DNA of 32,000 nt from Nitrosospira multiformis ATCC 25196. Its GTDB lineage: Bacteria > Pseudomonadota > Gammaproteobacteria > Burkholderiales > Nitrosomonadaceae. The position numbers and the translations under genes were made by a program. Location of the stretch: the NCBI RefSeq assembly GCF_000196355.1, contig NC_007614.1, positions 2,160,001 to 2,192,000 on the forward strand. The letters are read 5' to 3'. Each line of letters opens with the position of its first letter. Position 1 is the stretch's first letter. The notes beneath the pieces were generated by a model. The model was not told the DNA's origin and did no database searches. It saw only the letters and a list, made by a program, of their open reading frames with translations. Of this stretch, positions 10,444 through 32,000 are shown one piece after another.

Positions 10444-10571
10444 TCTGGAAATTATCGCTGCCTGTCCTTTCTTCACCCCATGCCGTTCCAGGATAGTCCG
10501 GGCAGGAACCGGCAGGTACAGGAACGGATAATTCTTCCACTCTTATCACTCTTATTATTACGGTCAAGCTA

Positions 10572-11195: not shown

Positions 11196-11196
11196 T

Positions 11197-11691
11197 ATGA
11201 TCAGACTGCAAACGAACTACGGCGACATCATGCTCGAACTCGATCACGAAAAAGCACCGGTAACTGTCCAGAATTTTATAGACTATGTAAATAGCGGATA
11301 TTACGACAACACGATATTTCACCGCGTGATTGACGGATTCATGATTCAGGGAGGCGGTTTCGAACCGGGCATGATCCAGAAAAAAACCCGTGCCCCGATT
11401 GCAAATGAAGCAGGCAACGGTCTCAAGAACGATAAATATACCATCGCCATGGCGCGCACCTCTGATCCTCATTCAGCAACCGGTCAATTCTTTATCAATG
11501 TCAAGGATAACGATTTTCTGAATTACAAATCCCCCACAGCGCAAGGCTATGGCTACTGTGTGTTCGGCAAGGTGGTGGAAGGCATGGACGTAGTGGACAA
11601 GATCAAAAAGGTTAAAACGGGTACCCGCAGCGGCCATCAGGATGTACCTGTAGAAAATGCGATACTGGAAAAGGCAGAGGTAATTCAATAA
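11197..11691 (+). CDS. ppiB: cytoplasmic peptidyl-prolyl cis-trans isomerase (cyclophilin type)
   Basis: ATG 11197 lies 1 nt after the ppiA stop. The product begins [21 protein letters not shown] with no signal peptide and has a cyclophilin core ([34 protein letters not shown]). Confidence 0.9.
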
Positions 11692-11705
11692 CGTTTGTCA
11701 ACATC

Positions 11706-12386: not shown

Positions 12387-12472
12387 ATTGCAGATCGAAT
12401 TGCGCTCGAACCCGCTCCGGGAACGACCACGGCTGATTGTCTTATCTTGCTTATCTTTTATCGGGAGAAATC

Positions 12473-15201: not shown

Positions 15202-15321
15202 GCCGCTCCAAAGGGGATACCAAGGTTTGGAGATGTGCTGCGAGTTGCGAGTGCTTGATTGAATAATGCCTGAAGCGGGTTCTCTTGAGCCAGTTGCAGG
15301 CGCTTTATGATTGATATTCAC
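13441..15321 (-). CDS. secreted S8 subtilisin-family serine protease with I9-like propeptide and two C-terminal Ig-like (Big_7-type) domains, paralog 1
   Basis: Catalytic triad contexts AILDSGVD, HGTKVAG and GTSFSSPVTAG. Two DT(Q/T)AP...ASD..G... Ig-like repeats are present. Best start is GTG 15321, 7 nt after GAGGAGG. The ORF track start at 15411 has no RBS, and the GTG start gives a length (626 aa) essentially equal to paralog 2. Confidence 0.9.
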   Translation of the reverse strand: MNINHKAPATGSREPASGIIQSSTRNSQHISKPWYPLWSGILAVLLGLGPVISSAEPPEGRGPGMNKPLGWAKGRILVMPRAGLPEKELAKVLGEHGGKGRKIGQSDLYIVDLPGNASEKAVAARLAHHPALKFAEIDQEVEPALIPNDPYYGSAWHLPKIGAPSAWDSSLGSGVTIAILDSGVDPNHPDLSPQLVPGWNFYENNSNTSDVYGHGTKVAGSAAAMANNAQGVAGVAALAKIMPVRVSGSTGYATWSAISQGLIYAADRGVRVANASFLGLTDSASTRSAAQYMKDKGGLVIVSGGNTGVLQNYAVTTSMVAVAATDANDFRASWSSYGNYISLAAPGAGIWTTTMGGGYGAASGTSFSSPVTAGVVALMMAAKPTLSNTQIESLLFSTAVDLGTAGRDPYYGYGRVDAARAVQAAASAVVAGDTQAPAVSITSPAGGSSVTGLVGVNVAASDNVGVTRVELRVNNTTVAVDTTAPFAFTWDSAGVANGMANLTAYAFDAAGNSKASTTVSVNVANGTTTVARDTTAPQVKIVNPVTGNVSGSNVPISVNASDDSGASGITYALYIDGVLKATGKGSTLGYNWNIRNVAAGAHTVQVVAKDAAGNSASSSVSVTVVK

Positions 15322-15908
15322 GTAGTTCCTCCTCTTGGGGAGGCGGAACCGCCTAGATAGGCCGGGTGCCGAAAAACGTACTGAGCCGGAGCATCGAGAT
15401 CCACTCAACACGTTCTAATAGCTTCTCGTCATCCAAAGAATCGACAAGAAAGAAAATGGCATTATCTGGCAGTCCTGCCGTCCTGGGGCCTTGAGCCCGG
15501 TAGACCGATGACTTTGCGTCCCCCGCTTTCGCGAGATTTGCCTTTTACAGATTAAAAATTGCAGCGTTATCGTATCTGAACTCCCCAGGGGGTATGGGTG
15601 AAGCAACTGCACAAAAATCATTCTGTTCGTTGCTTTATTTAAAGGTGAAAAATGCTGCCGCTCCCGAACCCCGAGGAGATTTCGAAATTTGCAATTCTTG
15701 CAAACCAAACTTCCTGCCACTCCGGGTCAAACAGTACTCCTCCTGGTCGAAGAATTTTACATATCACTGCAGAATGGAAGAGCTCGAAGCAAACAAGGCT
15801 GATTTTATTGGAGTTTTAATTTAGGCACGAAAATTGCTAAAGAAGCTCCGATAGGCCGAAAACGAAGTTTCGAACCTATCCAACAAAAACTTATCAGGAG
15901 AACAAATA

Positions 15909-17000: not shown

Positions 17001-17672
17001 TTAAGCAAGCCTATTTCTCTGCCTGCGCGATACACCCCATCCCAGCAGCCCCAGCCCGAGAAGGGCAAGCGTCGTCGGCTCCGGAAGCTCTTGCGGCGGC
17101 GGACCTCCGAGTTCGGTAGGCCCCAGGCGAACTTGCTGTAAATCAGAAATCCCCGTCATTTGAACAGTACTGTCGATCGTTACTTTCACCATTACCTGGT
17201 TATCCAGGGAAAAACCGGTGAAAAAGTTCTGCCCGGAACCACTAAGTGGCTGATTCAAGAAGCTGAAGGTTGTGCCGAACTGATCCAACAGAAAGATGTT
17301 GGCAGAACCATCCGCGGCAGCATCAATATTGAACTGGACTTTCGAGAATCCAAGATTTGGATCGACCAAGCCGAAATCGATAAAGTTAAATGAACCATCA
17401 GCTGCTTCAATACGCGCCTGCCCTCCCGCCGGAGCAAAAATGTCTTCGTTACTTGTGAATCTGACAAGCTCACCGGTAGTCGGCGGATTGAGCTGTCCGA
17501 TAACTTCATGATCAAGAGTTGGATCAGGTTGATTAAAAAGTACATTATCCACATCTCCCGAGCCCCCTACCAGTCCTGGGCTTAACTGAAGAGTCGCGAA
17601 TGTATTTCCTGATAAAAGCACGCCGAGCAAAGCAACTCCGGCGCAGATCTTAAGTTTTCTCATGCCGTTCAT
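17001..17672 (-). CDS. PEP-CTERM sorting-domain protein
   Basis: GGGAGGGG RBS, signal peptide (VALLGVLLSGNTFA/TL), and C-terminal LPEPTTLALLGLGLLGWGVSRRQRNRLA. GC is visibly lower than in the neighbouring genes. Confidence 0.85.
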   Translation of the reverse strand: MNGMRKLKICAGVALLGVLLSGNTFATLQLSPGLVGGSGDVDNVLFNQPDPTLDHEVIGQLNPPTTGELVRFTSNEDIFAPAGGQARIEAADGSFNFIDFGLVDPNLGFSKVQFNIDAAADGSANIFLLDQFGTTFSFLNQPLSGSGQNFFTGFSLDNQVMVKVTIDSTVQMTGISDLQQVRLGPTELGGPPPQELPEPTTLALLGLGLLGWGVSRRQRNRLA

Positions 17673-17845: not shown

Positions 17846-19612
17846 TTACTTGATCACTGTCACATTCACCGAAGCAGATGCTGTATTGCCCGCCGCATCT
17901 CTGGCGACCGTCCAGATAGTGTGTGCTCCCGCGCGCACATTGCTTGGGCGGGTATTCCAGCTATATCCTAACGTACTTCCTTTTCCGGTAGCCTTGAGCA
18001 CGCCGTCGATGTAGAGCGTACAGGTGATTCCGGAAGCGCCGCTATCATCGCTTGCATTCACGCTGATGGCCACATTGCTGCCCGAAACATTGCCTGTGAC
18101 CGGATTTACGATCTTCACCTGTGGCGCGGTAGTATCCCTGGCCACCGTTGTCGTTCCGTTTGCCACATTCACCGAGACGGTGGTCGAAGCCTTGGAGTTG
18201 CCGGCCGCATCGAATGCATAAGCGGTCAGGTTCGCCATACCGTTGGCTACGCCTGCCGAATCCCAGGTGAAGGCGAACGGCGCCGTGGTGTCGACTGCGA
18301 CTGTGGTATTGTTGACCCGCAACTCGACACGAGTCACGCCGACGTTATCGCTCGCAGCCACGTTTACGCCGACCAGGCCTGTTACGCTTGATCCGCCAGC
18401 AGGGGAAGTGATGGAAACCGCCGGAGCCTGCGTATCTGCTGTCAGCGTGGTGCCGGCGGCGGCCTGTACGGCACGCGCCGCATTCACTCGCCCATAGCCG
18501 TAGTAAGGATCGCGCCCTGGCGTTCCAAGATCCACCGCCGTGGAATACAGCAGACTCTCGATCTGGGTATTGGATAATGTCGGCTTTGCCGCCATCATGA
18601 GCGCCACCACCCCAGCCGTTACCGGGCTTGAGAACGACGTGCCGGAAACCGCGCCATAGCCGCCACCCTTGGTAGTGCTCCAGATTCCTGCACCGGGAGC
18701 CGCGAGAGCAATGTAATTACCATAACTAGACCAGCTCGTCCGTACGTCATTTCCGTCAGTGGCAGAGACAGGAATCATGCTGGTGGTTGCGGCATAATTT
18801 TGCTGTACGCCAGTGTTGCCCCCGCTGACAATGACAAGGCCGCCTTTGTTCTTCAGGTATTGCGCCGCACTGCGAGTACTCGCACTGTCGGTCAGTCCGA
18901 GAAAGCTGGCATTGGCGACGCGAACCCCGCGGTCTGCCGCATAGATAAGCCCTTGGGAAATCGCACTCCAGGTGGCATACCCATCAGAGCCACTTACCCG
19001 GATCGGCATGATCTTCGCCCGTGCCGCCACCGAGGCCACCCCCAGCGCGTTATTGCCTGCCGCTCCCGCCGCACCCGCAACCTTGGTGCCATGCCCGTAA
19101 ACATCCGATGTATTGGAATTGTTCTCGTAGAAATTCCAGCCTGGCACCAGTTCCGTAGCCAGATCAGGGTGAGTGCTATCGACTCCTGAATCCAGGATGG
19201 CGATGGTCACGCCGCTGCCCAGGGAACTGTCCCAGGCGGACGGAGCGCCAATCTTGGGCAAATGCCAGGCGCTGCCATAGTAGGGATCGTTCGGAATGAG
19301 CGCGGGTTCGACTTCCTGGTCGATCTCGGCAAACTTGAGCGCCGGATGATGCGCAAGCCTTGCCGCCACCGCCTTCTCGGAGGCATTACCCGGCAAGTCG
19401 ACGATATACAGATCGCTCTGCCCGATCTTCCTGCCCTTGCCGCCATGTTCGCCCAGAACCTTGGCCAGTTCCTTTTCCGGCAAGCCGGCACGCGGCATGA
19501 CCAGGATGCGACCCTTCGCCCAGCCAACCGGCTTGTTCATTCCAGGCCCCCTGCCCTCCGGAGGCTCTGCACTGGAAATGACCGGACCCAATCCCAGCAA
19601 AACTGCCAGTAT
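17846..19612. repeat. direct repeat copy B (S8 gene body)
   Basis: Counterpart of 13441-15201. Copy B carries 6 extra nt near its 3' end (protein NTRPSNVRAG versus NIRNVAAG in copy A). Confidence 0.85.
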
Positions 19613-19726
19613 CGCCCCTGCAAAACGGCAGCTGGATGAGGCAACCTTTGCGCGTATGTTTGATATGAACCTCTCGGCAAGCCGGGCCGCTACACCGGCC
19701 TGCTCTTCCCTCTTGTCGGCGTTCAT
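17846..19726 (-). CDS. secreted S8 subtilisin-family serine protease with I9-like propeptide and two C-terminal Ig-like domains, paralog 2
   Basis: 626 aa, with ATG 19726 preceded by GAAAGGAG. It has the same triad contexts and domain order as 13441-15321. There is no other in-frame ATG/GTG/TTG before the h-region. Confidence 0.9.
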   Translation of the reverse strand: MNADKREEQAGVAARLAERFISNIRAKVASSSCRFAGAILAVLLGLGPVISSAEPPEGRGPGMNKPVGWAKGRILVMPRAGLPEKELAKVLGEHGGKGRKIGQSDLYIVDLPGNASEKAVAARLAHHPALKFAEIDQEVEPALIPNDPYYGSAWHLPKIGAPSAWDSSLGSGVTIAILDSGVDSTHPDLATELVPGWNFYENNSNTSDVYGHGTKVAGAAGAAGNNALGVASVAARAKIMPIRVSGSDGYATWSAISQGLIYAADRGVRVANASFLGLTDSASTRSAAQYLKNKGGLVIVSGGNTGVQQNYAATTSMIPVSATDGNDVRTSWSSYGNYIALAAPGAGIWSTTKGGGYGAVSGTSFSSPVTAGVVALMMAAKPTLSNTQIESLLYSTAVDLGTPGRDPYYGYGRVNAARAVQAAAGTTLTADTQAPAVSITSPAGGSSVTGLVGVNVAASDNVGVTRVELRVNNTTVAVDTTAPFAFTWDSAGVANGMANLTAYAFDAAGNSKASTTVSVNVANGTTTVARDTTAPQVKIVNPVTGNVSGSNVAISVNASDDSGASGITCTLYIDGVLKATGKGSTLGYSWNTRPSNVRAGAHTIWTVARDAAGNTASASVNVTVIK

Positions 19727-20427: not shown

Positions 20428-20919
20428 CTACTCTGTAGTGGCACGGACGAATGTTCCCGTCACGGTCACTATTCCCGGTTCGGGCAAGGCTTCAATCCGG
20501 CCCTTTTCGAAACGCACGCGCTGTAACTGCATTGCTACAGTCCACTTCAGCCAGTCCGCGAAGGGCACAGCCTTAAACGTGACCTGGACCTGATCATCCC
20601 CCAGTGCATCAATGCCATTCAAAGCATGAGAAAGTCCGAGGATGTCTGCCTGGGTTTGCGCGAGCGCATGCAAATCGCCGGATAAGGGGGGCGGAGATGG
20701 AGTAACCTTTATACGCTCGTACTCGGCCGCCTGTTGCTCGAACTCTTCCGCCTGGACGCGCAGTTGCGGAAGGTTCGAGCGCAATCGGGTACGCGCCCTG
20801 TCCGCCGAGCTGACCAGCCCCAGATAAAGTCCCGCGCTCAAAATCATTCCCAATATTGTGATGACCCGCCGCTCCCGGGGAGAGCGTGATTCCCATGCTT
20901 TCCGCAGCTGTTTCCTCAC
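20428..20919 (-). CDS. gspM: type II secretion system protein M
   Basis: 163 aa. GTG 20919 overlaps the gspL stop (GTGA). A short cytoplasmic N-terminus is followed by one TM helix (VITILGMILSAGLYLGLV) and a periplasmic domain. Its position after gspL supports the call. Confidence 0.8.
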   Translation of the reverse strand: MRKQLRKAWESRSPRERRVITILGMILSAGLYLGLVSSADRARTRLRSNLPQLRVQAEEFEQQAAEYERIKVTPSPPPLSGDLHALAQTQADILGLSHALNGIDALGDDQVQVTFKAVPFADWLKWTVAMQLQRVRFEKGRIEALPEPGIVTVTGTFVRATTE

Positions 20920-22172
20920 GGAGTCGTCACCACGAGCACAACGATTCCGGCACCCCCGTCTGTCGGTGCCGGGTTGATATCGACACTCAGATCGTTTTCC
21001 CGCAACCGGGCGGCAATACGGTTCGCGAGTCCTTCCTCCGCGGCCAGCTCAAGCGCTATTCTCCCGCTATCATAGGAAATCGCATGCAGACTGCCAGAAG
21101 CCAGTTCGCTCAATGCCGGTCCCACTGTTTTGATCATGGGCAAGAAATCGGCCGTATCGGGAACGCCTGCCGCATGCCGCGCTTCGATGAGCTTTCGCCG
21201 CATCTGTAGCGCAGGGTCCACTACCGCGACCGCAGCCGGAAATAGGGCGCGAAACCGGGTTTCCATTTGCTGATGCAAGGCACGCTCTTCATTGGCAAGC
21301 AATGCCCAGTCAGCGGCAACGGCCAGGGAATGGAGCACCAACGCTGCCGCGCCGATCCAGACTGCCGGGCGCAGACGTGAAAGAAGTCCCCTGAAAGGAG
21401 GCCAGCGTCTGTGTTTCTGCAGCAAGCTGATACTGGATTGCTGAGCCCCGCGCCAATCCCAGGTCCCCGCAATGTATACAGGAATGCCGAGCACCCGTTG
21501 CCACGCTTCGATATCTGGCGCTGCCGCAGGATTCTTCATGATCTCACCGGCACTCTCCTCAAATGTCATTGCGCCTTCAGGCTCAATTGTATAGAGCGCG
21601 ATGGATGCCGGTCTCGCTCCATGCCTTTCCGCATCTTCGAGCATGAGATGCAATGACAACGGAGGAGACGCATCGCCTCCGCAATCTGTTGCTCCCCCTT
21701 CAAACTCGCCGGTGCGCACAAAACCTTCCCGGCCCTCCCAGGCGAAACTCCATTCTCCCGGCGTCCATGGCAATAACAGTGTTTCGCAGTAAATTTCATC
21801 CACTTGGATAGCAGCTGCCTGCAGCGCATCGAGACACTGCGTCAACCTTTTCTTATCCACTGCCGCGAGTATGTCCTCGCCTCCAGCGGAACCGATCCAG
21901 CTCACTTGATTAGCCTCAGGCTCACGCAGCATTTCTTCTTCGACCGCAAACGCCAGTACTGACCCAGGCTGCCGCCTCGCAGCGTCAGGTAAGCGAGCCC
22001 GTGTGAGCAAAACCTGGGCAGCTGGAATGATCAACTGGACAGAACTCGCGTTTTTCGGCAGATCAGCTATCTGCCCCTCCCCTGTCAAGGGCAATCCATC
22101 ATCGCCCGTCCATATCCACTGGCAACTCAATGATTCCTCCAGAAGAGGACACCGGATTCTTAGCAGGCTCAT
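20916..22172 (-). CDS. gspL: type II secretion system protein L
   Basis: 418 aa. ATG 22172 overlaps the gspK stop (ATGA). It has an actin-like cytoplasmic N-domain, a single TM helix (AVWIGAAALVLHSLAVAADWAL) and a periplasmic C-domain. The call also rests on operon position. Confidence 0.85.
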   Translation of the reverse strand: MSLLRIRCPLLEESLSCQWIWTGDDGLPLTGEGQIADLPKNASSVQLIIPAAQVLLTRARLPDAARRQPGSVLAFAVEEEMLREPEANQVSWIGSAGGEDILAAVDKKRLTQCLDALQAAAIQVDEIYCETLLLPWTPGEWSFAWEGREGFVRTGEFEGGATDCGGDASPPLSLHLMLEDAERHGARPASIALYTIEPEGAMTFEESAGEIMKNPAAAPDIEAWQRVLGIPVYIAGTWDWRGAQQSSISLLQKHRRWPPFRGLLSRLRPAVWIGAAALVLHSLAVAADWALLANEERALHQQMETRFRALFPAAVAVVDPALQMRRKLIEARHAAGVPDTADFLPMIKTVGPALSELASGSLHAISYDSGRIALELAAEEGLANRIAARLRENDLSVDINPAPTDGGAGIVVLVVTTP

Positions 22173-23083
22173 GAATATTTACGCCAGACAATAACGGGCC
22201 ACCCGCCCTCCTCACGGTTAAGGAGGACCACTCCCCCGGCATGGGCTTCGCCGATAACTACACTGAGTGCCGCAAGAAAATAATTGCTACTGGTGCCAAT
22301 ATCGTTTTCCTCCACCGCAGCGCCCTGAGGAAGACGATTGAGAAAATCGGCATGATCACGAAAATGGGCGCGCGCGCGCTGGAAAGTCAATATGCGGGCA
22401 TTTCCAATTCCCAGACCCTCAACAATGGCAGCAAGCACTTCGGGGGGCGCCGTATTGACATTGACAGTGGTAAAGCTCGGCAGGGCCGTCACGAACGGAC
22501 GCAAACGCGCGCGGATATCCCTGTTGAAACCGCGAATGCGGGCCAGTTCCGCTACATCGGTCAAGGGCCTGTTGGCAGTAAGGTAAGAAGGGTTCAGCAC
22601 ACTGTAATATTCATCCTCGGCGCCGTGCTGGGGACGAGGTTCGCTGTCCACGTCTATCCAGTCAGCCAATGCATCGGCAAGCGCATCCGGCAAATCGAGC
22701 AAGGCCAGCAAGCGCTTGAAGTAAGCAAGCTGTGTCGCACTGATTTTTCCATCGGGAGCCAGGTTGTTCAGATTGAACAAGCCCTGCTGATCGTGGATGT
22801 GGCCCGTGAGTTCACCGTTTTCAATGGGCATCGCCGGAATCTGCAATGCCCAGGGTTCGCCCAGGTGATCGACGCTGCCCATCCGGCCATCATCGCTCAG
22901 CACAGCGCGGACCCAGTCCACCCCCGCCTTGACCATCGCCTGCGCCTGAACGTAATCCTGCGCAAGCTCGCTTTGCCGTGACCAGATACCCTGTGCGGTA
23001 ATGATCGCTGTTGCGGTTATCGACGCGAGCGCCACGACACCCATGGCAAGCACGACTGCTACCCCACGTTGTCCTGTTCTCAT
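22169..23083 (-). CDS. gspK: type II secretion minor pseudopilin K
   Basis: 304 aa. The N-terminus QRG/VAVVLAMGVVAL lacks Glu+5, as is typical for GspK. It also has a GEPWA motif and HhH-like C-terminal repeats (VNVNTAPPEVLAAI). Confidence 0.85.
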   Translation of the reverse strand: MRTGQRGVAVVLAMGVVALASITATAIITAQGIWSRQSELAQDYVQAQAMVKAGVDWVRAVLSDDGRMGSVDHLGEPWALQIPAMPIENGELTGHIHDQQGLFNLNNLAPDGKISATQLAYFKRLLALLDLPDALADALADWIDVDSEPRPQHGAEDEYYSVLNPSYLTANRPLTDVAELARIRGFNRDIRARLRPFVTALPSFTTVNVNTAPPEVLAAIVEGLGIGNARILTFQRARAHFRDHADFLNRLPQGAAVEENDIGTSSNYFLAALSVVIGEAHAGGVVLLNREEGGWPVIVWRKYS

Positions 23084-23087
23084 GATG

Positions 23088-23708
23088 TCATTGGAAAATA
23101 CGTTCTATTTCCTCCCCCGAAGCAAGGGCAATGCGCAGGCGCACGGCTTGGGGAATGGAAGAAATCGTAGACACCGGCGCGTCAGGCGCTCCACTTGGCC
23201 ATGCATTCACCCAGGCACGATTTGCGGTAAGATACTGCAACTCCATTTTTGCCACCCCGCTCAATACCGGATAACGCATGGCAACTGTCCGGGGACCGAT
23301 GTCGAGACCAGGCCACAACCAAAGCTCGATTTCCCGTTTATCATTCAACTGGTAAGCAATCCGCCGTGCGGCATCCGTTTCTTCGATGGAACCCAGACGA
23401 CTGAATTCCATGTAAGGCAACAAGCCTCCATCCGGCGCCGCTTTAATCACTCCGCGCCAGGCCGGCAGGACGCCTGAGCCGGTTCGAACCGGACGCGGTA
23501 TCGCAAGTTGCACATCATGCTCAAACCTTGTGAGGAATAAATCTATGCGGCGCCATTTTTCAGTTTCCCGCCTGACATACTCTTGCGCGTCGAGTATCGC
23601 TCCAAGTCCACGATAAGACATCACTGCCAGCAAAGACAGAACAGTCAGCGCAACCAGCAGCTCAATCAGGGTAAATCCCCGGAATCCGGTTTCACGCATG
23701 GATTTCAT
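23088..23708 (-). CDS. gspJ: type II secretion minor pseudopilin J
   Basis: Prepilin-type N-terminus MKSMRETGFRG/FTLIELLVAL, 206 aa. Confidence 0.85.
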   Translation of the reverse strand: MKSMRETGFRGFTLIELLVALTVLSLLAVMSYRGLGAILDAQEYVRRETEKWRRIDLFLTRFEHDVQLAIPRPVRTGSGVLPAWRGVIKAAPDGGLLPYMEFSRLGSIEETDAARRIAYQLNDKREIELWLWPGLDIGPRTVAMRYPVLSGVAKMELQYLTANRAWVNAWPSGAPDAPVSTISSIPQAVRLRIALASGEEIERIFQ

Positions 23709-23824
23709 GGAAATGGATTACGAATACCTTCCTCGCCGGGGACACGAAGGCACTAAGTCATAGGAGCGTTGAGCAGCATCTTCCATCCCATATAAGCTGC
23801 CATCGTCCTGTTCCGGCAGCTTGC

Positions 23825-24232
23825 TCACGGATTCCCCGGGACTGCCGGTTGCGCCAGATATCCTGTCAGATGCGCAAGCAGGTGCGATTCCCCAGCAGGC
23901 GCAAATACCGAAATATTGGCTCGCCGGAATGAGGGATTTGCGGTTTCGGTAATATCCGCCCGCCACGTGAAATCCATGTTTCCTTGTTTTGCTGTTCCAC
24001 GATATGTGCCCGGCGACGGCCAGGCGCCGCGGGTACGCTGCTCTGCCAGGAAATTTTCCGCAACCCATCCCGCCAGCAGTCGCGAGCGCAATTCGCCGAC
24101 AGTGAGCGTGCCCTGCCCTGCAACACGCAATGCGGCCATGAGAGCAACCGCAATGATTGCCAGTGCGACCAGAACCTCAACCAGCGTGAATCCACGGCCT
24201 CTACCGCAGCTGCCCGGATATGATTTCATCAT
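23825..24232 (-). CDS. gspI: type II secretion minor pseudopilin I
   Basis: Prepilin-type N-terminus ...GRGRG/FTLVEVLVAL. ATG 24232/24229 is preceded by GAGGGAAGG. The ORF track start at 24307 is unlikely because it would overlap gspH by 107 nt and has no RBS. Confidence 0.8.
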   Translation of the reverse strand: MMKSYPGSCGRGRGFTLVEVLVALAIIAVALMAALRVAGQGTLTVGELRSRLLAGWVAENFLAEQRTRGAWPSPGTYRGTAKQGNMDFTWRADITETANPSFRRANISVFAPAGESHLLAHLTGYLAQPAVPGNP

Positions 24233-24719
24233 TCGGCCTTCCCTCTCCCGGCAATGCCTGCACATCGCCGACCGGAGATCCTGTGACTGTATAGCGCTCC
24301 GTCCCAAAAGATATCTTTATGGCATAAGCCGGCATGAAACCGTGAGGATTGAACTCCAGTCGCATAAAATCTGCTGGCGACATCTCGATCAACATGCCCG
24401 CGATCTTCATACCCTGCGGAAATGTTCGTTCCCCGAAGAGATCATTGTTACGAATTTCCGACCAACCGGCACCCCATTGATTCCCCCAGAACCGATAGCT
24501 TGCGCCGTCTGTTGTCCAGGCGAGAGATCTTCCTGACATACGCGCCTCGGTTCCCGCCAGGTCAAGGAGTTGCGCCAGCCGTTCCGCTTCGACGCGAAGA
24601 AGAGCTCGTTCGTCCGGTCGCACGGTGCTGCTGATCAGTCCGGCAAAAAGCCCGATGATCACCAGTGCGACAAGCACTTCGAGGAGCGTGAATCCGCCTC
24701 CGGCTTTTATCTCAGTCAC
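24201..24719 (-). CDS. gspH: type II secretion minor pseudopilin H
   Basis: GTG 24719 follows AGGA. Prepilin-type N-terminus MTEIKAGG/GFTLLEVLVAL, 172 aa. Confidence 0.8.
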   Translation of the reverse strand: MTEIKAGGGFTLLEVLVALVIIGLFAGLISSTVRPDERALLRVEAERLAQLLDLAGTEARMSGRSLAWTTDGASYRFWGNQWGAGWSEIRNNDLFGERTFPQGMKIAGMLIEMSPADFMRLEFNPHGFMPAYAIKISFGTERYTVTGSPVGDVQALPGEGRPNDEIISGQLR

Positions 24720-24733
24720 GAATCCTGTTGGCC

Positions 24734-25255
24734 TTACAGGTTCCAGGAGCCGATATCCGCATCGTTACCGTCTCCCCCGCGGGCGCCATCTGCCCCGAAA
24801 CTGAAAACATCGATTTCGCCGTGAACCCCGGGGTTCAGGTATTGATAAGGGTTGCCCCAGGGATCCTTCGGAAGGCGCTCGACATATCCTCCGGCTTTCC
24901 AATTGGGTGGAATCGGTGGATCGGTCGGCTTCGTTACCAGCGCCTGCAATCCCTGTTCAGTCTTGGGGTAGCGATGGTTGTCGAGGCGGTACAGCTTGAG
25001 CATCTGCATCAAGCTTGCGACATCCTGTTTTGCTGCGATGATACGCGCTTCGTCAGGGCGGCTGATGATTTTCGGCACCACCATTACAGCGAGAATTCCT
25101 AGAATCACGACCACCACCATGACCTCGAGCAAAGTAAAGCCGCTCTGCCTTCCGGGCCGTCCATACTCTGAGGCGATCAAATGGCCTGGAGCTTGTTGTC
25201 TTTCAGAGAGTAGATTGGAACCAGATTTCTCCATCATTTTTACGTAAATACCCAT
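24734..25255 (-). CDS. gspG: type II secretion major pseudopilin G
   Basis: The mature part is unmistakable: G/FTLLEVMVVVVILGILAVMVVPKI...AKQDVASLMQMLKLYRLDN...DPWGNPYQY...SFGADG. The start is uncertain: ATG 25255, ATG 25237/25234, or in-frame TTG 25180. None has a good SD. Confidence 0.9.
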   Translation of the reverse strand: MGIYVKMMEKSGSNLLSERQQAPGHLIASEYGRPGRQSGFTLLEVMVVVVILGILAVMVVPKIISRPDEARIIAAKQDVASLMQMLKLYRLDNHRYPKTEQGLQALVTKPTDPPIPPNWKAGGYVERLPKDPWGNPYQYLNPGVHGEIDVFSFGADGARGGDGNDADIGSWNL

Positions 25256-25618
25256 CAAAAAACGGACAAAATGGAACGAAGATTACCCAAGAAATTGTTC
25301 ATTGTCGATTCCGGTTTTGCACCATGGCACGCGCCTCCCGATCTGTCCTCCTAATCCACGTCTCGATGCAGCGCAACATTGGCCTCGCCGATAAAAATTT
25401 TCAGCTGCCTCAGGAAGTGACGTCAACAATAATCTCAAAAAAAACATATCCCTTATTCGCCAAACAGGAATAAATTAACGCTCATTTTGCATGTTTAGAA
25501 TCAGGGAAGCCGGAAAACAAATGACAGACGGGAACAACGCCTGCAGTTGCATCAAGCACGGAATTTTTCATACGTAGCAATTTTCATTATCAAACTTCTA
25601 AAGGGGAATACACTTATC

Positions 25619-27457
25619 ATGCCAATATCATCATTAAAGGGCACCTGCATCTACAGATATGTTTCTATCGTCGCCATGGCGGCCCTGTTCCACCCGGGAG
25701 TCAGTCTTGCTGGTGGAAACGAAGTCAACTTCTCGCTCACCGATAACCCTGCCCGCTGGTTTGATACCGGCACAACAATTGCCGGCACGCGCTCGCTGGC
25801 CGTGGCAAAACCGGGGGTGCGGGTAAATTTTTCAGGGAATTCAAACACGGTTCACACCCGAACCAGCGTAATTTATCCAACAGGCGCAGCGGGTATGCCG
25901 TTTAACACCCCGCCAAGAAAAAGCGGAGACAGCGTTACCTTGAAAACCCCCGGTTTGTATGTCTTTACCTGCAGTATCCATCCCTACATGCTAGGGGCCG
26001 TCATTGTCGATGACCCGAATACGAGCGGGCTGGATTTGGGGAATTCTATCAGCTTGATCAACGGCATCACGGTTCCAAGCAGCAGTGATCTCGCCACCCG
26101 TTTGCTGCACACCTTCTTTGTCGCGACCAATCCGGCAAACTGGCAGAATTACGCCTCCAATACGCCCTGGCACATCACCTATCCAAATGTGGATGTGCGG
26201 GTGGACATAGGCGTAGTCAATCTACCTACCGTGCTCAATGCCCGCTATGGGAATGATCGCGCCCTGGAGCCTCTCCAGAATCCGGTCATGCCGGCAGTGG
26301 GCGAAGTATGGGTGGCAACGCAGTTCGAAACCGCTTCCGGCAAATCCAAGCCAGGCACGGTCACCGCCGTAAGCGGCGCAACGTGGCAGGTAACTCGAAA
26401 GGTCGCATTGCCGTCGATCAACATGAATAACGCGCACAACATGTGGACCGATAGAAATCAGAATGTCATTTACGCGACCCAATGGTTCGACAGTAAATTG
26501 GCTGTCTATGACCGACAGACAGGAGCATTGATTCGCAATGTGTCGGTAGGAGAAGCGCCGGCTCATGTGATGACGCGGACGGACACCGACGAGCTTCATA
26601 TCACAAACAATGGTGATACGCGGACAGACTCGGTCATGGAACTTGCGCCACTTGCCACCGGAGTGGAGCGGCGTATAGATATCGGGCGGGGAAATGCTCA
26701 TGCCCACTGGATGAGCCATGATGGAAAAAAAATGGTTACCCCGAATGTCCTCACGGGGGATACCACAGAGTATAGCTTCGGCTCGAACAGTGTCGAGTCC
26801 ATTCTGCCCGCGAGCACCCCCTTTGGGCACCCGCTGGCCACGGGAATGATGCCGGATGCCAGCAAGTATTATGTGGCCAACATGCTGGACAACACGATGA
26901 CGGTGGTCAACATGAATACTCATGCCGTTATCAAGACCATCAATCTGATTGCCAACTATAACCCGGTTACCGGCGCGATTACCGGTCCTGTAGGCGCTCT
27001 GCCGATTCAAACTCCTGTCTCTCCGGACGGCAAAAACATGGTGACCGCCAATATGCTCAGCGGGACCATTACCGTGATCGATACTCGTCCCGGCGTACCA
27101 ACTTCAGATGCGGTTGTTGCCATGCTTCCATGTGATCCCGGCTGCCATGGCGTGCAATATGGCGCCAAGCAGGGAGGGGGATACTATGCCTATGTTGCGA
27201 GCAAATTTTCGAATAGATTACTCGTCGTCGATCCCGATCCAAATGGAGATGGGAATCCGTCGGATGCTGTAATTGCAGGAAAAGTAGGACTTTTCGCGTC
27301 TGCCGGAACTCAGCGTGATGCCACCATTACCGGGAATCCGGGGATGGGAGGTCAAGGCGTCCTCCCGGTCCCCGTCATCTACAATGGGTGGGTTCAGAAT
27401 TTACCTGCCGCATGGAAAAGCCAGTTGACAGCTGCTCAACAGAACCCGGCCCAGTAG
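25619..27457 (+). CDS. secreted cupredoxin (amicyanin-like type-1 Cu site) fused to YVTN-type beta-propeller; function unknown
   Basis: ATG 25619 is preceded by AAGGGGA, and there is a Sec signal (IVAMAALFHPGVSLA/GG). The T1Cu ligand set is H79...C118-x2-H121-x2-M124 (TVHT ... FTCSIHPYMLGAVIV). About 450 aa of blade-like repeats follow (YVANMLDNTMTVVNMNT, MVTANMLSGTITVIDT, YAYVASKFSNRLLVVDP). The ORF track start at 25547 is a TTG without RBS. Confidence 0.8.
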   Translation: MPISSLKGTCIYRYVSIVAMAALFHPGVSLAGGNEVNFSLTDNPARWFDTGTTIAGTRSLAVAKPGVRVNFSGNSNTVHTRTSVIYPTGAAGMPFNTPPRKSGDSVTLKTPGLYVFTCSIHPYMLGAVIVDDPNTSGLDLGNSISLINGITVPSSSDLATRLLHTFFVATNPANWQNYASNTPWHITYPNVDVRVDIGVVNLPTVLNARYGNDRALEPLQNPVMPAVGEVWVATQFETASGKSKPGTVTAVSGATWQVTRKVALPSINMNNAHNMWTDRNQNVIYATQWFDSKLAVYDRQTGALIRNVSVGEAPAHVMTRTDTDELHITNNGDTRTDSVMELAPLATGVERRIDIGRGNAHAHWMSHDGKKMVTPNVLTGDTTEYSFGSNSVESILPASTPFGHPLATGMMPDASKYYVANMLDNTMTVVNMNTHAVIKTINLIANYNPVTGAITGPVGALPIQTPVSPDGKNMVTANMLSGTITVIDTRPGVPTSDAVVAMLPCDPGCHGVQYGAKQGGGYYAYVASKFSNRLLVVDPDPNGDGNPSDAVIAGKVGLFASAGTQRDATITGNPGMGGQGVLPVPVIYNGWVQNLPAAWKSQLTAAQQNPAQ

Positions 27458-27706: not shown

Positions 27707-28753
27707 TCAATAGATTCCACCCCCCAGCTGAGACGAGACCAACACCCCGGTTTCAGCTGAAAGGTCATACCGGGTTGTGCCATTTCCCGGACTCGTCCAC
27801 TGGCCGAGATGGAATGATCCCGATCCCGAGAGTCTGTCTACCATGACATTGCGGAAAGTCAGAGGCTGGCCGCTTTGACAGACGGTTGGGGCAATTGTGG
27901 GCCTTAGAAAATATGCCGAGCCGACACCCAGGCGGATTGCAATGCCATTGTCAATCGCCAACGCGGTTTCGACATCCAGACCAATGCCTCGGGCGGATTC
28001 AACGCTCACCCATTGGTCCTGGATGGTACGGGCGAGAAAGGTGAGAAGGCGTCCCATCCGGTCGCGCGTGTCGAGATGCGCATCGGCAATTACCCCATTC
28101 AAGCCAGGCGCAGTCAGAAATTCTCGATCGAGAGTCATGCGACGGTTATAAGGATCGGCCAGCGCATCGTCAGAGTACACCGTGCCGTTCAACGCTACGA
28201 AGTCAAACTGACCCAGAACTGCAAGTCCCGCGCTGGTGCCCCCGATAGGTGCATTGCGACCAATCAGTTCATTAATCGCCGTTTCGAGCGCAGTTCCTTT
28301 CCAGAGATTAATGTAATCACTCTGGTCGCCGCCCGCGATAAACAAAATTTCCGCTTTTTTGATCCGATCGAGCACGAACGGATCGCTGGCGGCCTCACGC
28401 GTCTTTATGACCAGTGTCTCGATGGAATCTATACCGCCCATGTCGTAGACATACTGGTTGTAGCCGTCGGCTCCCCGTACACGGATCACCACAAAGTCGC
28501 CGCCTCCCGCCTTCTGGATCATCCACTTGAATGCAGCGTCCACATCGGGACCTCCGCCCATCAGGAGAGTTGATGGCGATGGTGGCCTTTGCGGCAGGAC
28601 AGCATCAACCGCGTTGCCCGTAAGGTAATATTCGTAGCCTTTGGGCTTGGGCTCTGCCAGAACCCCGAAGGTCATGAAGACCACCGCAGAGGCCAGGGCA
28701 AGGTGTGCAAAAAGCCGCGGGAAGGATTTATTGGCACAATCTCCGGTATCCAT
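27707..28753 (-). CDS. secreted cyanophycinase-like peptidase (S51 family)
   Basis: GAGGGAG RBS and signal peptide (LALASAVVFMTFGVLA/EP). It has the nucleophile elbow GGTSAGLAV, and FIAGGDQ and DAHLDTRDRMGRLLTF blocks matching what I recall of cyanophycinase (GGTSAG; D-x-H-F..R.R..RL). Confidence 0.75.
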   Translation of the reverse strand: MDTGDCANKSFPRLFAHLALASAVVFMTFGVLAEPKPKGYEYYLTGNAVDAVLPQRPPSPSTLLMGGGPDVDAAFKWMIQKAGGGDFVVIRVRGADGYNQYVYDMGGIDSIETLVIKTREAASDPFVLDRIKKAEILFIAGGDQSDYINLWKGTALETAINELIGRNAPIGGTSAGLAVLGQFDFVALNGTVYSDDALADPYNRRMTLDREFLTAPGLNGVIADAHLDTRDRMGRLLTFLARTIQDQWVSVESARGIGLDVETALAIDNGIAIRLGVGSAYFLRPTIAPTVCQSGQPLTFRNVMVDRLSGSGSFHLGQWTSPGNGTTRYDLSAETGVLVSSQLGGGIY

Positions 28754-29189: not shown

Positions 29190-29720
29190 ATGCCGGAAAT
29201 CTCGATCGACCGGTCGAATCGTGCGCAAACAGCCCTTGTATATTTAATCATCCTCGCTGCACTCGCGCTGCTTGGAGGGGTACTGTTGTACTGGACACGC
29301 CTTTGGTTCATCCCCCACCCTCAGCCCAACTTCGAGTCAGGCACGCGTGCGGACGTGGAAGCGGCCGAAGATGTATCGGGTGTGAGTGACCTGTTCGGTA
29401 TTGCACAACGAGAACAATCCTCTATTGCTGTTCCTGTCGGACCTGAGGTCAGGCTGTTCGGGGTTGTCGCCGCTTCCCGGCACGGGCGGGGCTATGCGAT
29501 CCTGCAAGTGGATGGAAGAGAGACGCTTGCGGTGCGCGAAGGTGAAAACATCGCTCCCGGCCTCCAGCTGGCTGAGGTTCACGCCGAACATATTGTCCTG
29601 GAACGTGACGGAATGCGGGAAACACTTGTATTGCAGCGTCAGAATCCGCCTGCAGACCCTGCTCGTCCGGTGGAGACAGACCTGCCTGTCGAGCTTCACG
29701 CGCCGGTCATAACTGAGTGA
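29190..29720 (+). CDS. gspC: GspC-like T2SS protein (TM plus HR domain only; may be annotated GspN in some genomes)
   Basis: 176 aa with a single TM helix (ALVYLIILAALALLGGVLLYW). An HR/PilP-like block follows (LFG...VRLFGVVAA...GYAILQVDGRETLAVREGENIAPGLQLAEVHAEHIVLERDG). It sits immediately upstream of gspD, and no PDZ domain is present. Confidence 0.65.
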   Translation: MPEISIDRSNRAQTALVYLIILAALALLGGVLLYWTRLWFIPHPQPNFESGTRADVEAAEDVSGVSDLFGIAQREQSSIAVPVGPEVRLFGVVAASRHGRGYAILQVDGRETLAVREGENIAPGLQLAEVHAEHIVLERDGMRETLVLQRQNPPADPARPVETDLPVELHAPVITE

Positions 29721-29732
29721 TGTCGTCATCTC

Positions 29733-32000
29733 ATGGGCTACAGAGGTAAAATCGTGCGGCATCGCTCGCTATGTGCAGTTTTTTTATGGATGGCAGTGGC
29801 AGGCTGGGTTACCGAGGCTTGGGCCGTAAATCCCTCTGCCACCCTGCCCGTCGAGGAAATTGGCGTCCCGCCGAGCGTCCTGCCGGAAGCGGATTCCCTG
29901 CGCGCCAGTAAATCCAGGTCTTCTGCCGGTCAGGATCTCGTTACACTCAATTTCGTCAATGCCGATATTGAAGGGGTAGTGAAAGCAGTCAGCGAAATTA
30001 CCCGAAAAAATTTCATGCTCGACCCCCGCGTCAAGGGTACGATCAACATCGTTTCAGCCAAGCCAGTGCCGAGGTCGTCGGTCTACGAAGTATTCCTGTC
30101 GGCACTGCGATTGCATGGATATGCAGTCGTTGAGGATTACGGCATCATCAGGATCGTTCCGGAAAGTGATGCCAAGCTATACCAGGGCCCGACACTTGGT
30201 CCCACGAACAAGCGGCAGCTCGCGGGCGACCGTATCCAGACACAGGTATTCACGCTGCAGTACGAATCCGCGGTGCAGATGGTGCCGATCCTGCGTCCGC
30301 TGATCGCTCCAAACAACAGTATCACTGCAAATCCCAACAGTAACACCCTGGTTATTACAGACTACGCGAGCAATCTCCAACGCCTGGCGAAAATAATTGA
30401 TTCGGTGGATCAGCCAAGTGGAACCGAGCCTGTCTCGATACCCCTTCAGCACGCCTCGGCGATCGATGTCGCGCAAACCGTGAACCGGCTGTTTTCAGAA
30501 TCGACGCAGTCCCAGGCCGAGGGCGCCGCGGACCCCACCCAGCAGCGTTTCACAGTCGTCGCCGACGCCCGCTCGAATACCCTCCTTGCACGCTCCGGAA
30601 ACCGGGCAGCGCTTGCGCGTCTGCGCCAGCTGGTAACAGTGCTCGATTCTCCCACCAGCGCTGCCGGCAACATGCACGTCGTCTTTCTCAAGAATGCCGA
30701 TGCAGTCAGGCTTGCCGAAACCCTCAGGGCGATCTATCACAACATGGCGTCCCCGGTTTCCTCATCTTCGGGACTGAGCCAGGGCACCGGCACAGCTTTT
30801 GGAACATCTTCCCTGGGTACATCCACCGGCGGGGGGATGGGTGCCTCGTCAGGCACCTCAACAGGGGGGTCGATGGGCACTTCCATGCCCGGTTCCAGCC
30901 TTGGTGCGGGGACTGTTCCCGCTGCTTCCACCGTCACCCCGGCTCCGATGCAAACTGGCGCAACTTCCGCCACCCCCGGCATCATTCAGGCGGATGCAGC
31001 CACCAACTCGATCATTATTACTGCCCCGGATGCTATTTATAATAATTTGCGCGCGGTGGTGGAGAAGCTCGACGTGCGCCGCGTGCAGGTTTATATTGAA
31101 GCGCTGATTGCCGAAATCACTGCCGACAGAGCCGCGGAATTCGGCATCCAGTGGCAGAATCTGAGCAATGCCGCGCAAGGTGGCACCCAGGTTTTCGGTG
31201 GCACCAACTTCAATGCCGGCACTGCCGGAGGCGGCAGTATCATCTCCACCGCCCAGAATCCGATAGCGAATGCAGCCTCCGGTCTGACTATCGGCATCAT
31301 GAATGGCCTTGTCACGGCTATTCCCGGCATCGGCCCTGTTCTCAACATTCATACGCTCATCCGCGCGCTGGAAACGGATGCCAATGCCAACATTCTTTCC
31401 ACCCCCACCCTGCTGACACTGAATAACGAAGAAGCCAGGATCATCATCGGGCAGAACGTTCCGATTCCCACCGGCCAATTCATTCCGCCAGTAGGAGGCG
31501 CCGTTACCTCCCCGTTTCAAACCGTTTCACGCCAGGACGTGGGACTATCATTGAAGATCAAGCCCCTTATCTCGGAAGGCAATACTGTCCGTGTGCAGAT
31601 TTTTCAGGAAGTCTCGAGCGTCGTTCCTGGCACGGTCAACGCCACCAACGGGTTGATTACCAACAAACGCTCGATAGAATCGACAGTGCTGGTTGACGAC
31701 GGGCAGATTCTCGTGCTCGGCGGTCTGATGCAGGATTCGGTAAATGACTCGGTTGAAAGAATTCCACTGGTCGGGGCGATTCCGCTGTTCGGACAATTGT
31801 TCAGTTACAACAAGCGCTCACGCAACAAAACCAATCTGATGGTATTCCTGCGGCCGACGCTGATGCGCGCGGGCGACGCCGCCGATCCGCTTTCTGACGC
31901 ACAGTACGATCGGGTGCTGGGCGAACAGAAAAAAGTGAGACCCAAGTTTAATCTTGTGCTTCCGGATATGGAATCGCCTACTTTGCCGCCGCGTCAACCA
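29733..32000 (+). CDS. gspD: type II secretion system secretin GspD (3' end beyond window)
   Basis: The frame is open from ATG 29733 to the window end (756 codons, no stop), so it is absent from the ORF track. It has a signal peptide (VFLWMAVAGWVTEAWA/VN), an N0 motif VTLNFVNADIEGVVKAVSEITRKNF, and repeated N-domains. The secretin core is present (LSTPTLLTLNNEEARIIIGQNVP, ITNKRSIESTVLVDDGQILVLGGL, IPLVGAIPLFGQLF). Confidence 0.92.
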   Translation, partial: MGYRGKIVRHRSLCAVFLWMAVAGWVTEAWAVNPSATLPVEEIGVPPSVLPEADSLRASKSRSSAGQDLVTLNFVNADIEGVVKAVSEITRKNFMLDPRVKGTINIVSAKPVPRSSVYEVFLSALRLHGYAVVEDYGIIRIVPESDAKLYQGPTLGPTNKRQLAGDRIQTQVFTLQYESAVQMVPILRPLIAPNNSITANPNSNTLVITDYASNLQRLAKIIDSVDQPSGTEPVSIPLQHASAIDVAQTVNRLFSESTQSQAEGAADPTQQRFTVVADARSNTLLARSGNRAALARLRQLVTVLDSPTSAAGNMHVVFLKNADAVRLAETLRAIYHNMASPVSSSSGLSQGTGTAFGTSSLGTSTGGGMGASSGTSTGGSMGTSMPGSSLGAGTVPAASTVTPAPMQTGATSATPGIIQADAATNSIIITAPDAIYNNLRAVVEKLDVRRVQVYIEALIAEITADRAAEFGIQWQNLSNAAQGGTQVFGGTNFNAGTAGGGSIISTAQNPIANAASGLTIGIMNGLVTAIPGIGPVLNIHTLIRALETDANANILSTPTLLTLNNEEARIIIGQNVPIPTGQFIPPVGGAVTSPFQTVSRQDVGLSLKIKPLISEGNTVRVQIFQEVSSVVPGTVNATNGLITNKRSIESTVLVDDGQILVLGGLMQDSVNDSVERIPLVGAIPLFGQLFSYNKRSRNKTNLMVFLRPTLMRAGDAADPLSDAQYDRVLGEQKKVRPKFNLVLPDMESPTLPPRQP

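Follow-up and report, generated by a model that had tools for sequence, protein, structure and literature searches.

Background

Nitrous oxide reductase (NosZ) is a periplasmic copper enzyme composed of a seven-bladed beta-propeller, in which histidines at the hub bind the catalytic cluster, and a cupredoxin domain for electron transfer. This plan resembles that of the protein encoded by the gene studied here, which lies at positions 25,619 to 27,457 of a 32,000-nucleotide stretch of Nitrosospira multiformis ATCC 25196 (contig NC_007614.1, positions 2,160,001 to 2,192,000 of the forward strand; this whole stretch is called the window in the following). Other systems with which the window protein can be compared are: thiocyanate dehydrogenase (TcDH), which has a His-ligated trinuclear copper centre with more ligands and no cupredoxin domain; cytochrome cd1 nitrite reductase, which has a haem c domain, an eight-bladed propeller with haem d1 and no copper; methylamine dehydrogenase, whose propeller carries no metal; and the carotenoid cleavage oxygenases, Fe(II) dioxygenases with one axial metal, a propeller of another subtype and no electron-transfer domain. 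Multicopper oxidases (MCOs) accept electrons at a type-1 (T1) copper and reduce O2 at a trinuclear centre.

The lactonase-type nitrous oxide reductase (L-NosZ, clade III, model NF052460; He et al. 2025, cited in PMC13477213) is a lactonase/YVTN propeller with a proposed catalytic copper site. In the archaeal multicopper oxidase MCO4 (Nmar_1354) a pendant T1 cupredoxin lies 13.5 A from the T1 copper of the MCO part, to which it relays electrons, and the protein oxidises hydroxylamine (NH2OH) to HNO with O2; few of the copper enzymes that archaea use for ammonia oxidation have been characterised (PMC11761707). For the ammonia-oxidising bacteria (AOB), no NO-oxidising enzyme had been identified as of April 2026 (PMC13170337).

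We find that the window protein belongs to a large and newly delineated family that has two conserved sets of metal ligands, is concentrated in nitrifiers and methanotrophs and is repeatedly tied to an O2-reducing MCO. On balance, the protein is probably an exported metallo-oxidoreductase module, in which a substrate would be oxidised at a metal held by four to five hub histidines and the electron would pass via the T1 copper to an acceptor.

Gene and domain architecture

The open reading frame (ORF) listing gives an ORF from TTG at 25547..27457 (+). Translation from the ATG at 25619 yields 612 aa followed by a TAG stop; AGGGG lies 11 nt 5' of this ATG, and the starts of the aligned homologues all coincide with it. 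Judged by its sequence, this is a real gene, because its conservation makes chance no credible explanation. Conservation was counted over 77 full-length members from Pseudomonadota, Nitrospirota, Thermoproteota, Acidobacteriota, Chloroflexota, Binatia and Actinomycetota. The fold was modelled with AlphaFold2 on a diverse alignment of 72 sequences (predicted local distance difference test, pLDDT, 94.0; predicted template-modelling score, pTM, 0.91); with only 22 close orthologues the pLDDT was 55. The gene and the domains of its product are:

25619..27457 (+), complete cupredoxin-propeller gene, 612 aa plus stop (ORF, translation; full-length orthologues in Nitrosospira and Nitrosomonas are 75-98 % identical)
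25619..25711 (+), signal peptide, residues 1-31, predicted from the hydrophobic N-terminus, with predicted cleavage after SLA
25718..26011 (+), type-1 (blue) copper cupredoxin domain, residues 34-131 (beta-sandwich strands with pLDDT >90; aligns to 6HBE, 5FC9, pseudoazurin and amicyanin)
25853..25855 (+), H79, predicted first T1 copper ligand (codon CAC; His in 77/77)
25970..25990 (+), predicted ligand loop C118-x2-H121-x2-M124, CSIHPYM (codons checked; Cys and His in all of the 77, Met in 75/77; the amicyanin loop aligns in register)
26012..26302 (+), conserved linker domain, residues 132-228, with short strands and helices 157-170 and 202-210 (AlphaFold, pLDDT 95-98)
26303..27406 (+), seven-bladed YVTN-type beta-propeller, residues 229-596 (TIGR02276; 28 strands in fours; Foldseek)

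The N-terminus has a hydrophobic core with SLA/GG at its end and is a plausible Sec signal, by which the protein would be exported. Helix 10-22 of this region has a low pLDDT in the model. The N-termini of the homologues are hydrophobic and variable in sequence, and keep a small-x-small (A-x-A) ending. A preliminary description of the locus, made from the sequence alone, had reported a Sec-type N-terminus and the T1 set H79, C118, H121 and M124, and the translation and codons place these exactly there. A scan for promoters and terminators around the gene returned no more sites than in shuffled sequence.

The first domain has the His/Cys/His/Met set and the modelled beta-sandwich of a type-1 cupredoxin, and copper binding is predicted from these ligands and this fold. 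Its best match is the extra C-terminal cupredoxin domain of the Thermus nitrite reductase NirK (6HBE), the loop of which, CSIHPYM, is identical to that of the window protein; the Nitrosopumilus blue-copper protein 5FC9 and pseudoazurins also align with the ligand loop in register. The ligand spacing had been equated beforehand with that of amicyanin, and the loop can indeed be aligned gap-free with the one that bears the ligands near the C-terminus of solved amicyanins (CTFHPFM, where the chain ends), although the amicyanin equivalog model TIGR02657 gives the window protein 17.1 bits against a cut-off of 110.2. The conservation of the T1 ligands in homologues, on which the preliminary description had made its proposal depend, is nearly complete.

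Between cupredoxin and propeller the model contains a well-ordered linker domain of about 95 residues, many of which are invariant among AOB and part of which is deleted in a clade dominated by methanotrophs. The propeller follows, with innermost strands that begin near residues 272, 314, 360, 405, 462, 509 and 579, and strands 229-262 at its N-terminal end complete blade 7. The YVTN repeat model TIGR02276 matches three stretches with 47.2 bits (cut-off 27.85), and the best Foldseek matches are seven-bladed propellers of the YVTN, lactonase and YncE types, with 1L0Q at the top (E 7e-18). The YVTN-like blades of the preliminary description are thus present, seven in number, but they occupy about 370 aa (229-596) rather than about 450, the linker domain taking up residues 132-228.

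The searches of Pfam and NCBIfam gave no family-level match to the window protein, and the profile search of the PDB and the Foldseek search turned up, among solved structures, only generic YVTN propellers and small cupredoxins. Together with literature searches on this architecture in nitrifiers and methanotrophs, in which no publication was found, this agrees with the earlier supposition that the protein falls outside the characterised families. No Cu-oxidase model of Pfam matches it either, and it has no HCH motif, so that it does not qualify as an MCO.

Conserved residues at the propeller hub

Besides the T1 ligands, a second set of residues is nearly invariant, and these lie on the innermost strands of the propeller:

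26435..26437 (+), H273, putative hub His at the start of the innermost strand of blade 1, NAHNMW (77/77; kept at 26-32 % identity)
26564..26566 (+), H316, putative hub His on the innermost strand of blade 2, APAHVM (77/77; kept in distant members)
26699..26707 (+), H361-A-H363, putative hub His on the innermost strand of blade 3 (H361 in 77/77; H363 in 76/77 of the closer clades and variable in distant members)
27008..27010 (+), Q464 on the innermost strand of blade 5 (Gln in 77/77)
27131..27148 (+), C505-DPG-C509-H510, with H510 at the start of the innermost strand of blade 6 (H510 in 77/77, C505 in 72/77, C509 in 69/77)
27353..27355 (+), Q579, the counterpart of Q464 on blade 7 (Gln in 76/77)

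In the alignment and the AlphaFold2 model the conserved histidines all fall within the first residues of their innermost strands, and the equivalent positions hold Gln on blades 5 and 7 and small residues on blade 4. By propeller topology, these hub positions would ring the mouth of the central channel, and the conserved histidines may well converge on one metal site, which would bind copper. NosZ and TcDH ligate their clusters from the starts of their innermost strands. Further invariant residues are E237, N270, N274, W276 and W289. The preliminary description had pointed to histidines at most blade entries; all of the listed motifs are present, but only four to five of the eight listed histidines are conserved, and H367 and H404 are not among them, nor are H164, H185, H327 and H435 conserved in the 77 members.

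Relatives at 26-32 % identity keep the T1 set and H273, H316, H361 and H510, with Q, I or V in place of H363. The core of the family therefore consists of the T1 site and four histidines, with blades 1, 2, 3 and 6 each contributing one from the innermost strand. When the family is defined by the T1 set, the His on these four blades and the linker, the window protein has all of these traits, as have 76-77 of the 77 members; the family has no name. The pair C505/C509 is replaced by A, T or S in subclades of the methanotrophs and in distant members with H510 kept, and because of these replacements it is probably a disulphide rather than a ligand. A search for an extra, clade-specific metal site in the form represented by the window protein found none, as only H327 differs systematically.

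One metagenomic relative (P0139, 651 aa) is degenerate: its T1 ligands are replaced by R, D, A and T and the residues at 273, 316, 361 and 510 by N, Q, S and R. It keeps the fold-defining residues and may be a pseudo-enzyme.

Association with multicopper oxidases

Many relatives are longer, at about 900-1140 aa, and carry at their N-terminus a two-domain MCO (2dMCO) of the SLAC laccase type with HxH motifs and HCHxxxHxxxGM. Such long forms occur in ammonia-oxidising archaea (AOA; Nitrosocosmicus, Nitrososphaeraceae), and an archaeal long form used as query retrieves fusions in beta-proteobacterial AOB, including many Nitrosomonas. The bacterial hosts of the fusion include Nitrosospira multiformis itself, Nitrosovibrio tenuis, Nitrosospira sp. 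Nsp2, Nitrosomonas supralitoralis and the strains Nm33 and Nm166, the last of which has both a short form, like that of the window, and a long form. In the methanotroph clade a separate gene encodes the 2dMCO (310-350 aa, Cu-oxidase_3 and Cu-oxidase_2); in 40 of 44 loci it directly precedes the propeller gene, ending -49 to +22 nt from the start of the latter, and the remaining 4 loci are truncated at that point. Coupling to a 2dMCO is thus found in the methanotroph, AOA and long AOB forms, and not in the short-form clade or in the window.

Fusion and operon linkage to an MCO argue that the cupredoxin-propeller module serves as electron donor, so that the hub would oxidise something. The oxidising direction that had been guessed from the sequence alone thereby receives independent support, whereas the accompanying notion of a self-contained oxidoreductase becomes doubtful, the short form being devoid of a terminal acceptor site and its relatives being coupled to an MCO.

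The annotations given to the closest proteins in the databases are 'copper oxidase', 'multicopper oxidase type 1', 'YVTN family' and 'YncE'. The short form contains no MCO domain, and on this ground the two MCO labels are wrong for it; they probably stem from the fused or long relatives. The labels 'YncE DNA-binding' and 'lactonase' describe the fold level only. Labels such as 'copper oxidase', 'YncE DNA-binding' and 'lactonase' are found on thousands of sequences and are misleading.

The neighbouring genes are clade-specific, and no operon partner common to all clades was found, nor any conserved neighbour that ties the family to hao or amo. The alpha-proteobacterial methanotrophs Methylocystis and Methylocella (loci L004-L016, L021, L036, L039-L043) have a conserved four-gene cluster, which is located about 1-2.5 kb upstream of the match and encodes, in this order, an extracytoplasmic function (ECF) sigma factor, an 89-aa HxxxCxxC (ZAS-like) protein, the 2dMCO and the cupredoxin-propeller protein; in several Methylocystis a gene for GTP cyclohydrolase I follows directly. 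Near the operon of the gamma-proteobacterial methanotrophs lies a gene for an ArsR-type helix-turn-helix regulator with a Cys-rich C-terminal domain. The AOB long form is part of a conserved cluster that encodes, in this order, a NarL/GerE response regulator, a 340-aa protein with Cu-oxidase_3 only, in which the ligands of the second domain are absent, and the long form itself (about 920 aa):

L084 (Nitrosospira multiformis) 1622-5212 and 5681-10799, AOB long-form cluster
L086 (Nitrosomonas) 7993-12751, AOB long-form cluster

In N. multiformis this cluster adjoins a second gene set that resembles the E, F and G genes of a type II secretion system (T2SS), and in the Nitrosomonas long-form loci T2SS genes are absent.

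Size and distribution of the family

A search of 1.8 billion representative sequences recovered 128 clusters (50 % identity) at E <1e-30, and a scan of one genome per prokaryotic species yielded at least 579 loci, the best 80 of which, ranked by a methanotroph query, form the basis for the host counts given here. The methanotroph-dominated clade accounts for 44 of these 80 loci and comprises the genera Methylocystis, Methylocella, Methylococcus, Methylocaldum, Methylomicrobium, Methylotuvimicrobium and Methylohalobius and the Methylothermaceae. Nitrifier labels are attached to 24 of the other 36 (8 AOA of Nitrososphaera, Nitrosocosmicus and Nitrososphaeraceae, 12 Nitrospira/Nitrospiraceae, 3 Nitrosomonas and 1 metagenome-assembled genome (MAG) labelled Nitrosospira), and the rest consists of 6 Acidobacteriota, 4 Chloroflexota and single MAGs of Binatia, Actinomycetota, Multivoradales and Burkholderiales/Betaproteobacteria. 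Among the sampled loci, nitrifiers and methane oxidisers thus hold by far the larger share of the family, without being its only hosts.

The proteins closest to the window protein come from Nitrosospira-type ammonia oxidisers and their kin: Nitrosomonadales bacterium SCN 54-20, with 98 % identity, Nitrosospira lacus, with 85 %, and many Nitrosomonas of the oligotropha/ureae type, with 75-81 %. The guess of a chemolithotrophic host was accordingly a sound one, but a restriction to nitrogen or sulphur oxidisers does not hold, as Acidobacteriota, Chloroflexota and others also carry the family. Within the short-form clade one Nitrospira protein is 73 % identical to the window protein and those of the other Nitrospira are 62-67 % identical; Chloroflexota, Blastocatellia and Binatia reach 65-66 % and the archaeal Nitrososphaera 64 %. 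Overall the identity ranges from 58 to 73 % across phyla and from 75 to 98 % across AOB genera. Such identity over 600 residues argues for horizontal spread and strong purifying selection.

The short form of Nitrososphaera (MAGs L048 and L049; gene L049 5857-7737) stands alone, is 64 % identical over about 600 residues and nests among bacterial sequences in the tree. By its sequence, it looks like an inter-domain horizontal transfer among co-resident nitrifiers. A short form is also carried by Nitrosomonas sp. Is79A3; the genome of Nitrosomonas sp. Is79 was reported to be without nitrosocyanin, norCBQD and copCD (PMC3764937). A YVTN match retrieved from the literature on Methylocella is LutB, which is unrelated, and a transcriptome paper on M. 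capsulatus mentions no gene of this kind.

A further metagenomic relative (P0234, 565 aa) has an extra N-terminal CuA-like domain, followed by the T1 cupredoxin and the propeller. The C-terminal domain of Sec-type NosZ matches this extra domain with 73 bits, and the protein has the highest L-NosZ score in the family (143 bits, below the threshold of 700). Its domain composition may point to a broader radiation of redox proteins that join cupredoxins to YVTN propellers.

The type II secretion locus and the rest of the window

The gene of the window lies between two divergent parts of a T2SS locus:

20428..25258 (-), gspM, L, K, J, I, H and G, divergent from the gene (Pfam T2SSL/K/J/I/GspH/T2SSG; gspM by position and the N. 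lacus annotation)
29190..32000 (+), gspC, then gspD, which extends beyond the window end (Pfam T2SSC; reading frame open for 760 codons from 29721; N. lacus and L087 share this order)

The same position is found in N. lacus (85 % identity, same synteny) and in a 97 % relative (L087). In Nitrosomonas sp. Is79A3 the short form lies outside T2SS genes, near genes for an ECF sigma factor, an S8 peptidase and ABC proteins. The placement inside a T2SS locus, to which the preliminary description had drawn attention, is thus real for Nitrosospira, flanked as the gene is by gspM-G and gspC-D, but it is a feature of that genus; as a property of the whole family it was rejected on account of the Is79A3 locus and the Nitrosomonas long-form loci. 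The placement does hint at export.

Between the copper-protein gene and gspC, a gene at 27707-28753 (-) encodes a 348-aa protein with a hydrophobic N-terminus and a weak match to Peptidase_S51 (cyanophycinase/dipeptidase E-like); this gene is present in L087, and N. lacus has only a 66-aa ORF at this place. Just outside the T2SS genes lie paralogous genes for S8 subtilases with tandem Big_7 Ig domains, at 13441-15411 (-) and 17846-19726 (-), with PEP-CTERM proteins encoded near each, at 11706-12386 (+) and 17001-17672 (-). The subtilases and PEP-CTERM proteins are possible secretion or exosortase cargo, and in N. lacus and L087 the T2SS locus likewise has the S8/Big_7 gene beside it. Two adjoining genes at 8084-10443 (+) encode proteins with a C-terminal Cds6_C NTF2-like domain, the one with TPR repeats and the other with a YkuD L,D-transpeptidase domain. 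An antisense ORF of 262 aa at 26222-27010 (-) lies wholly within the copper-protein gene, is without homologue support and was taken as spurious. No mau genes were found in the window, and no nos genes or nos accessory genes in its 32 kb.

Possible function

In the mechanism that we propose, a small substrate would be oxidised at a putative metal site, most likely of copper, held by the four to five hub histidines; the electron would pass from the hub to the N-terminal T1 copper and would then leave to an acceptor. In the relatives this acceptor would be the 2dMCO, which would reduce O2 to water and is either fused (AOA, long AOB paralogue) or encoded by the adjacent gene (methanotrophs). For the stand-alone form of the window it would be encoded separately, as an MCO (possibly the long paralogue), a periplasmic cytochrome or a cupredoxin. 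The direction of electron flow in this scheme, with oxidation at the hub, would follow from the association with MCOs. As to the substrate class, a reactive nitrogen intermediate of ammonia oxidation (NH2OH, HNO or NO) is a tentative assignment, made because it fits the host range and the precedent of Nmar_1354. A reduced metal ion is a more tentative one, made because it fits the regulators, the copper-hungry hosts, the response of archaeal MCOs to copper limitation and the T2SS position. We regard as unlikely the more specific proposal that the module is the catalytic half of an unrecognised copper oxidase (hub copper, T1 copper, 2dMCO, O2) that was spread by horizontal transfer among AOB, AOA, Nitrospira and methanotrophs and oxidises NH2OH, HNO or NO.

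Several observations weigh against the oxidoreductase proposal or its nitrogen-specific version. The carotenoid cleavage oxygenases bind Fe(II) with a four-His hub on a seven-bladed propeller, and two relatives (P0137 and P0162) have lost the T1 ligands and kept the hub histidines, which means that the hub can persist without the relay. No MCO motif was found anywhere in the 32-kb window, and no redox partner gene adjoins the short form in any clade examined. The family also has hosts among Acidobacteriota, Chloroflexota, Actinomycetota and Binatia, which weakens the case for a nitrogen-specific substrate. Among the 240 best matches, the named AOB hosts of the short form are only Nitrosomonas of the cluster-6a type and some Nitrosospira, so that on this sampling it cannot be called a core gene of AOB. 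Finally, 'copper oxidase' entries in the proteome of N. ureae, which are possible members of the family, make up about 0.01-0.02 % of protein. The idea that the protein could be the universal and highly expressed missing NO oxidoreductase of AOB was considered and is unsupported, given the few AOB lineages, the non-nitrifier hosts and the lack of a neighbour link to hao or amo.

A rival explanation, which we consider rather unlikely, is that the protein oxidises or handles metal ions: a reduced ion, Cu(I), Fe(II) or Mn(II), would be bound at the hub, either as cargo or as the substrate, and would be oxidised via the T1 copper and an MCO, and the system would serve copper acquisition or detoxification in hosts whose copper demand is very high, with T2SS export in Nitrosospira. 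The concentration of the family in lineages based on copper monooxygenases is consistent with this, as are the regulators of the methanotroph operons, which resemble metal or redox sensors (the HxxxCxxC protein with its ECF sigma factor and the ArsR-type, Cys-rich protein). The same holds for the T2SS surroundings that the gene has in the window, N. lacus and L087, together with the long paralogue of N. multiformis beside its T2SS-like cluster, and T2SS-exported MCOs are known in Geobacter and Pseudomonas putida. Archaeal MCO1 and MCO4 respond strongly to copper limitation and have been proposed to oxidise Cu(I) (PMC7785015). This response would bear on the family if the copper-responsive MCO4 genes of N. 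viennensis carry the propeller. The T2SS link is, however, missing in Nitrosomonas, and no copC, copD, copA, PCuAC or Sco gene adjoins the family gene in any clade examined. Moreover, the invariant site of four to five His looks like a permanent cofactor site and not like a transient substrate site, and the substrate sites of cuprous oxidases are Met-rich.

The remaining explanations concern the propeller itself. It could be a non-catalytic binding or scaffold domain that tethers a T1 shuttle, its histidines being structural or holding a structural metal; most YVTN/YncE propellers are indeed without cofactor, such proteins are the best fold matches and no partner-independent catalytic signature is known. 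We consider this improbable, since the invariance across phyla and domains of four His on four strands, and of Q464, Q579, N270, N274 and E237, is hard to explain structurally, and since P0139 has lost the T1 and hub residues together. More improbable again is a reductase that works in the direction of NosZ or NirK, with the T1 copper receiving electrons and the hub reducing N2O, NO or nitrite. Copper propellers with a cupredoxin do reduce N2O (NosZ), and a lactonase-type NosZ has recently been described; the best cupredoxin match is the electron-donating extra domain of NirK, and distant members match the L-NosZ and NosZ models weakly, including P0234 with its CuA-like domain. Yet the L-NosZ model gives the window protein 27 bits against a cut-off of 700 and the distant members 57-143 bits, which is no better than generic YVTN families, and coupling to an O2-reducing MCO would be senseless for a reductase. 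In addition, the cupredoxin is of the T1 type and not CuA, no nos accessory genes lie nearby, and the hub has four to five His as against the seven of CuZ. A bare chance, and one that we disfavour, is that C505-x3-C509-H510 forms a variant c-type haem site and the propeller is a haem protein. CxxxCH is a known variant of the haem c motif and AOB possess cytochrome c maturation, but the motif is equally conserved in the homologues of Nitrososphaera and Nitrosocosmicus, the ammonia-oxidising archaea not being known to have c-type cytochromes, and both Cys are replaced by A, T or S in methanotroph subclades and distant members while H510 stays.

If the metallo-oxidoreductase reading holds and the substrate is a nitrogen intermediate, the family would be a candidate for the copper-based NH2OH- or NO-oxidising activity long sought in archaeal and bacterial ammonia oxidation, and at minimum a dedicated detoxifying oxidase for nitrification intermediates. 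Catalysis by copper at the hub would represent a new catalytic copper site and a new reaction for the nitrogen or copper cycle.

Comparison with known systems

The preliminary description had likened the protein to NosZ and TcDH, and this likeness is one of analogy only. With respect to NosZ (clades I and II), the order of the domains is reversed, the cupredoxin has a T1 site with one Cys instead of the binuclear CuA, four to five conserved hub His are found where the NosZ cluster has seven, and the coupling to an MCO would imply oxidation. The NosZ models TIGR04244 and TIGR04246 do not match the window protein at E up to 1, and no NosZ or TcDH chain occurs in the PDB profile or Foldseek lists. 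The match to L-NosZ (NF052460) amounts to 27.1 bits against 700, and the best of its two stretches, residues 411-455, corresponds to one YVTN repeat; L-NosZ is nevertheless a precedent for the role of this class of propellers as copper enzymes. With TcDH the window protein shares by analogy the seven-bladed propeller, a proposed metal site of hub His and possibly a small inorganic substrate, and the PDB profile search detected no sequence similarity between them.

The electron-transfer part finds its parallels elsewhere. MCO4 (Nmar_1354; PDB 9CCK) combines a 2dMCO with a pendant T1 cupredoxin and so has the first two modules of the long forms of the family, but it is without the propeller, as the window protein is without the MCO part; its cupredoxin is only marginally similar to that of the window protein (E 0.16 to 1), and the 2dMCO of the long forms matches SLAC-type laccases and not 9CCK. 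Amicyanin, with an equal C-x2-H-x2-M loop and an equal His-to-Cys spacing, is the partner of the propeller-containing methylamine dehydrogenase. Cytochrome cd1 nitrite reductase has the same order of an N-terminal electron-transfer domain and a cofactor-bearing propeller, and cd1 chains are among the Foldseek matches, over 430-550 columns. The carotenoid cleavage oxygenases share the seven blades and four His from different blades, and none of them is among the top 50 fold matches. We would thus class the window protein as a putative metal-hub propeller oxidoreductase with a cupredoxin, which resembles NosZ, cytochrome cd1 and MCO4 and is a member of none of these families.

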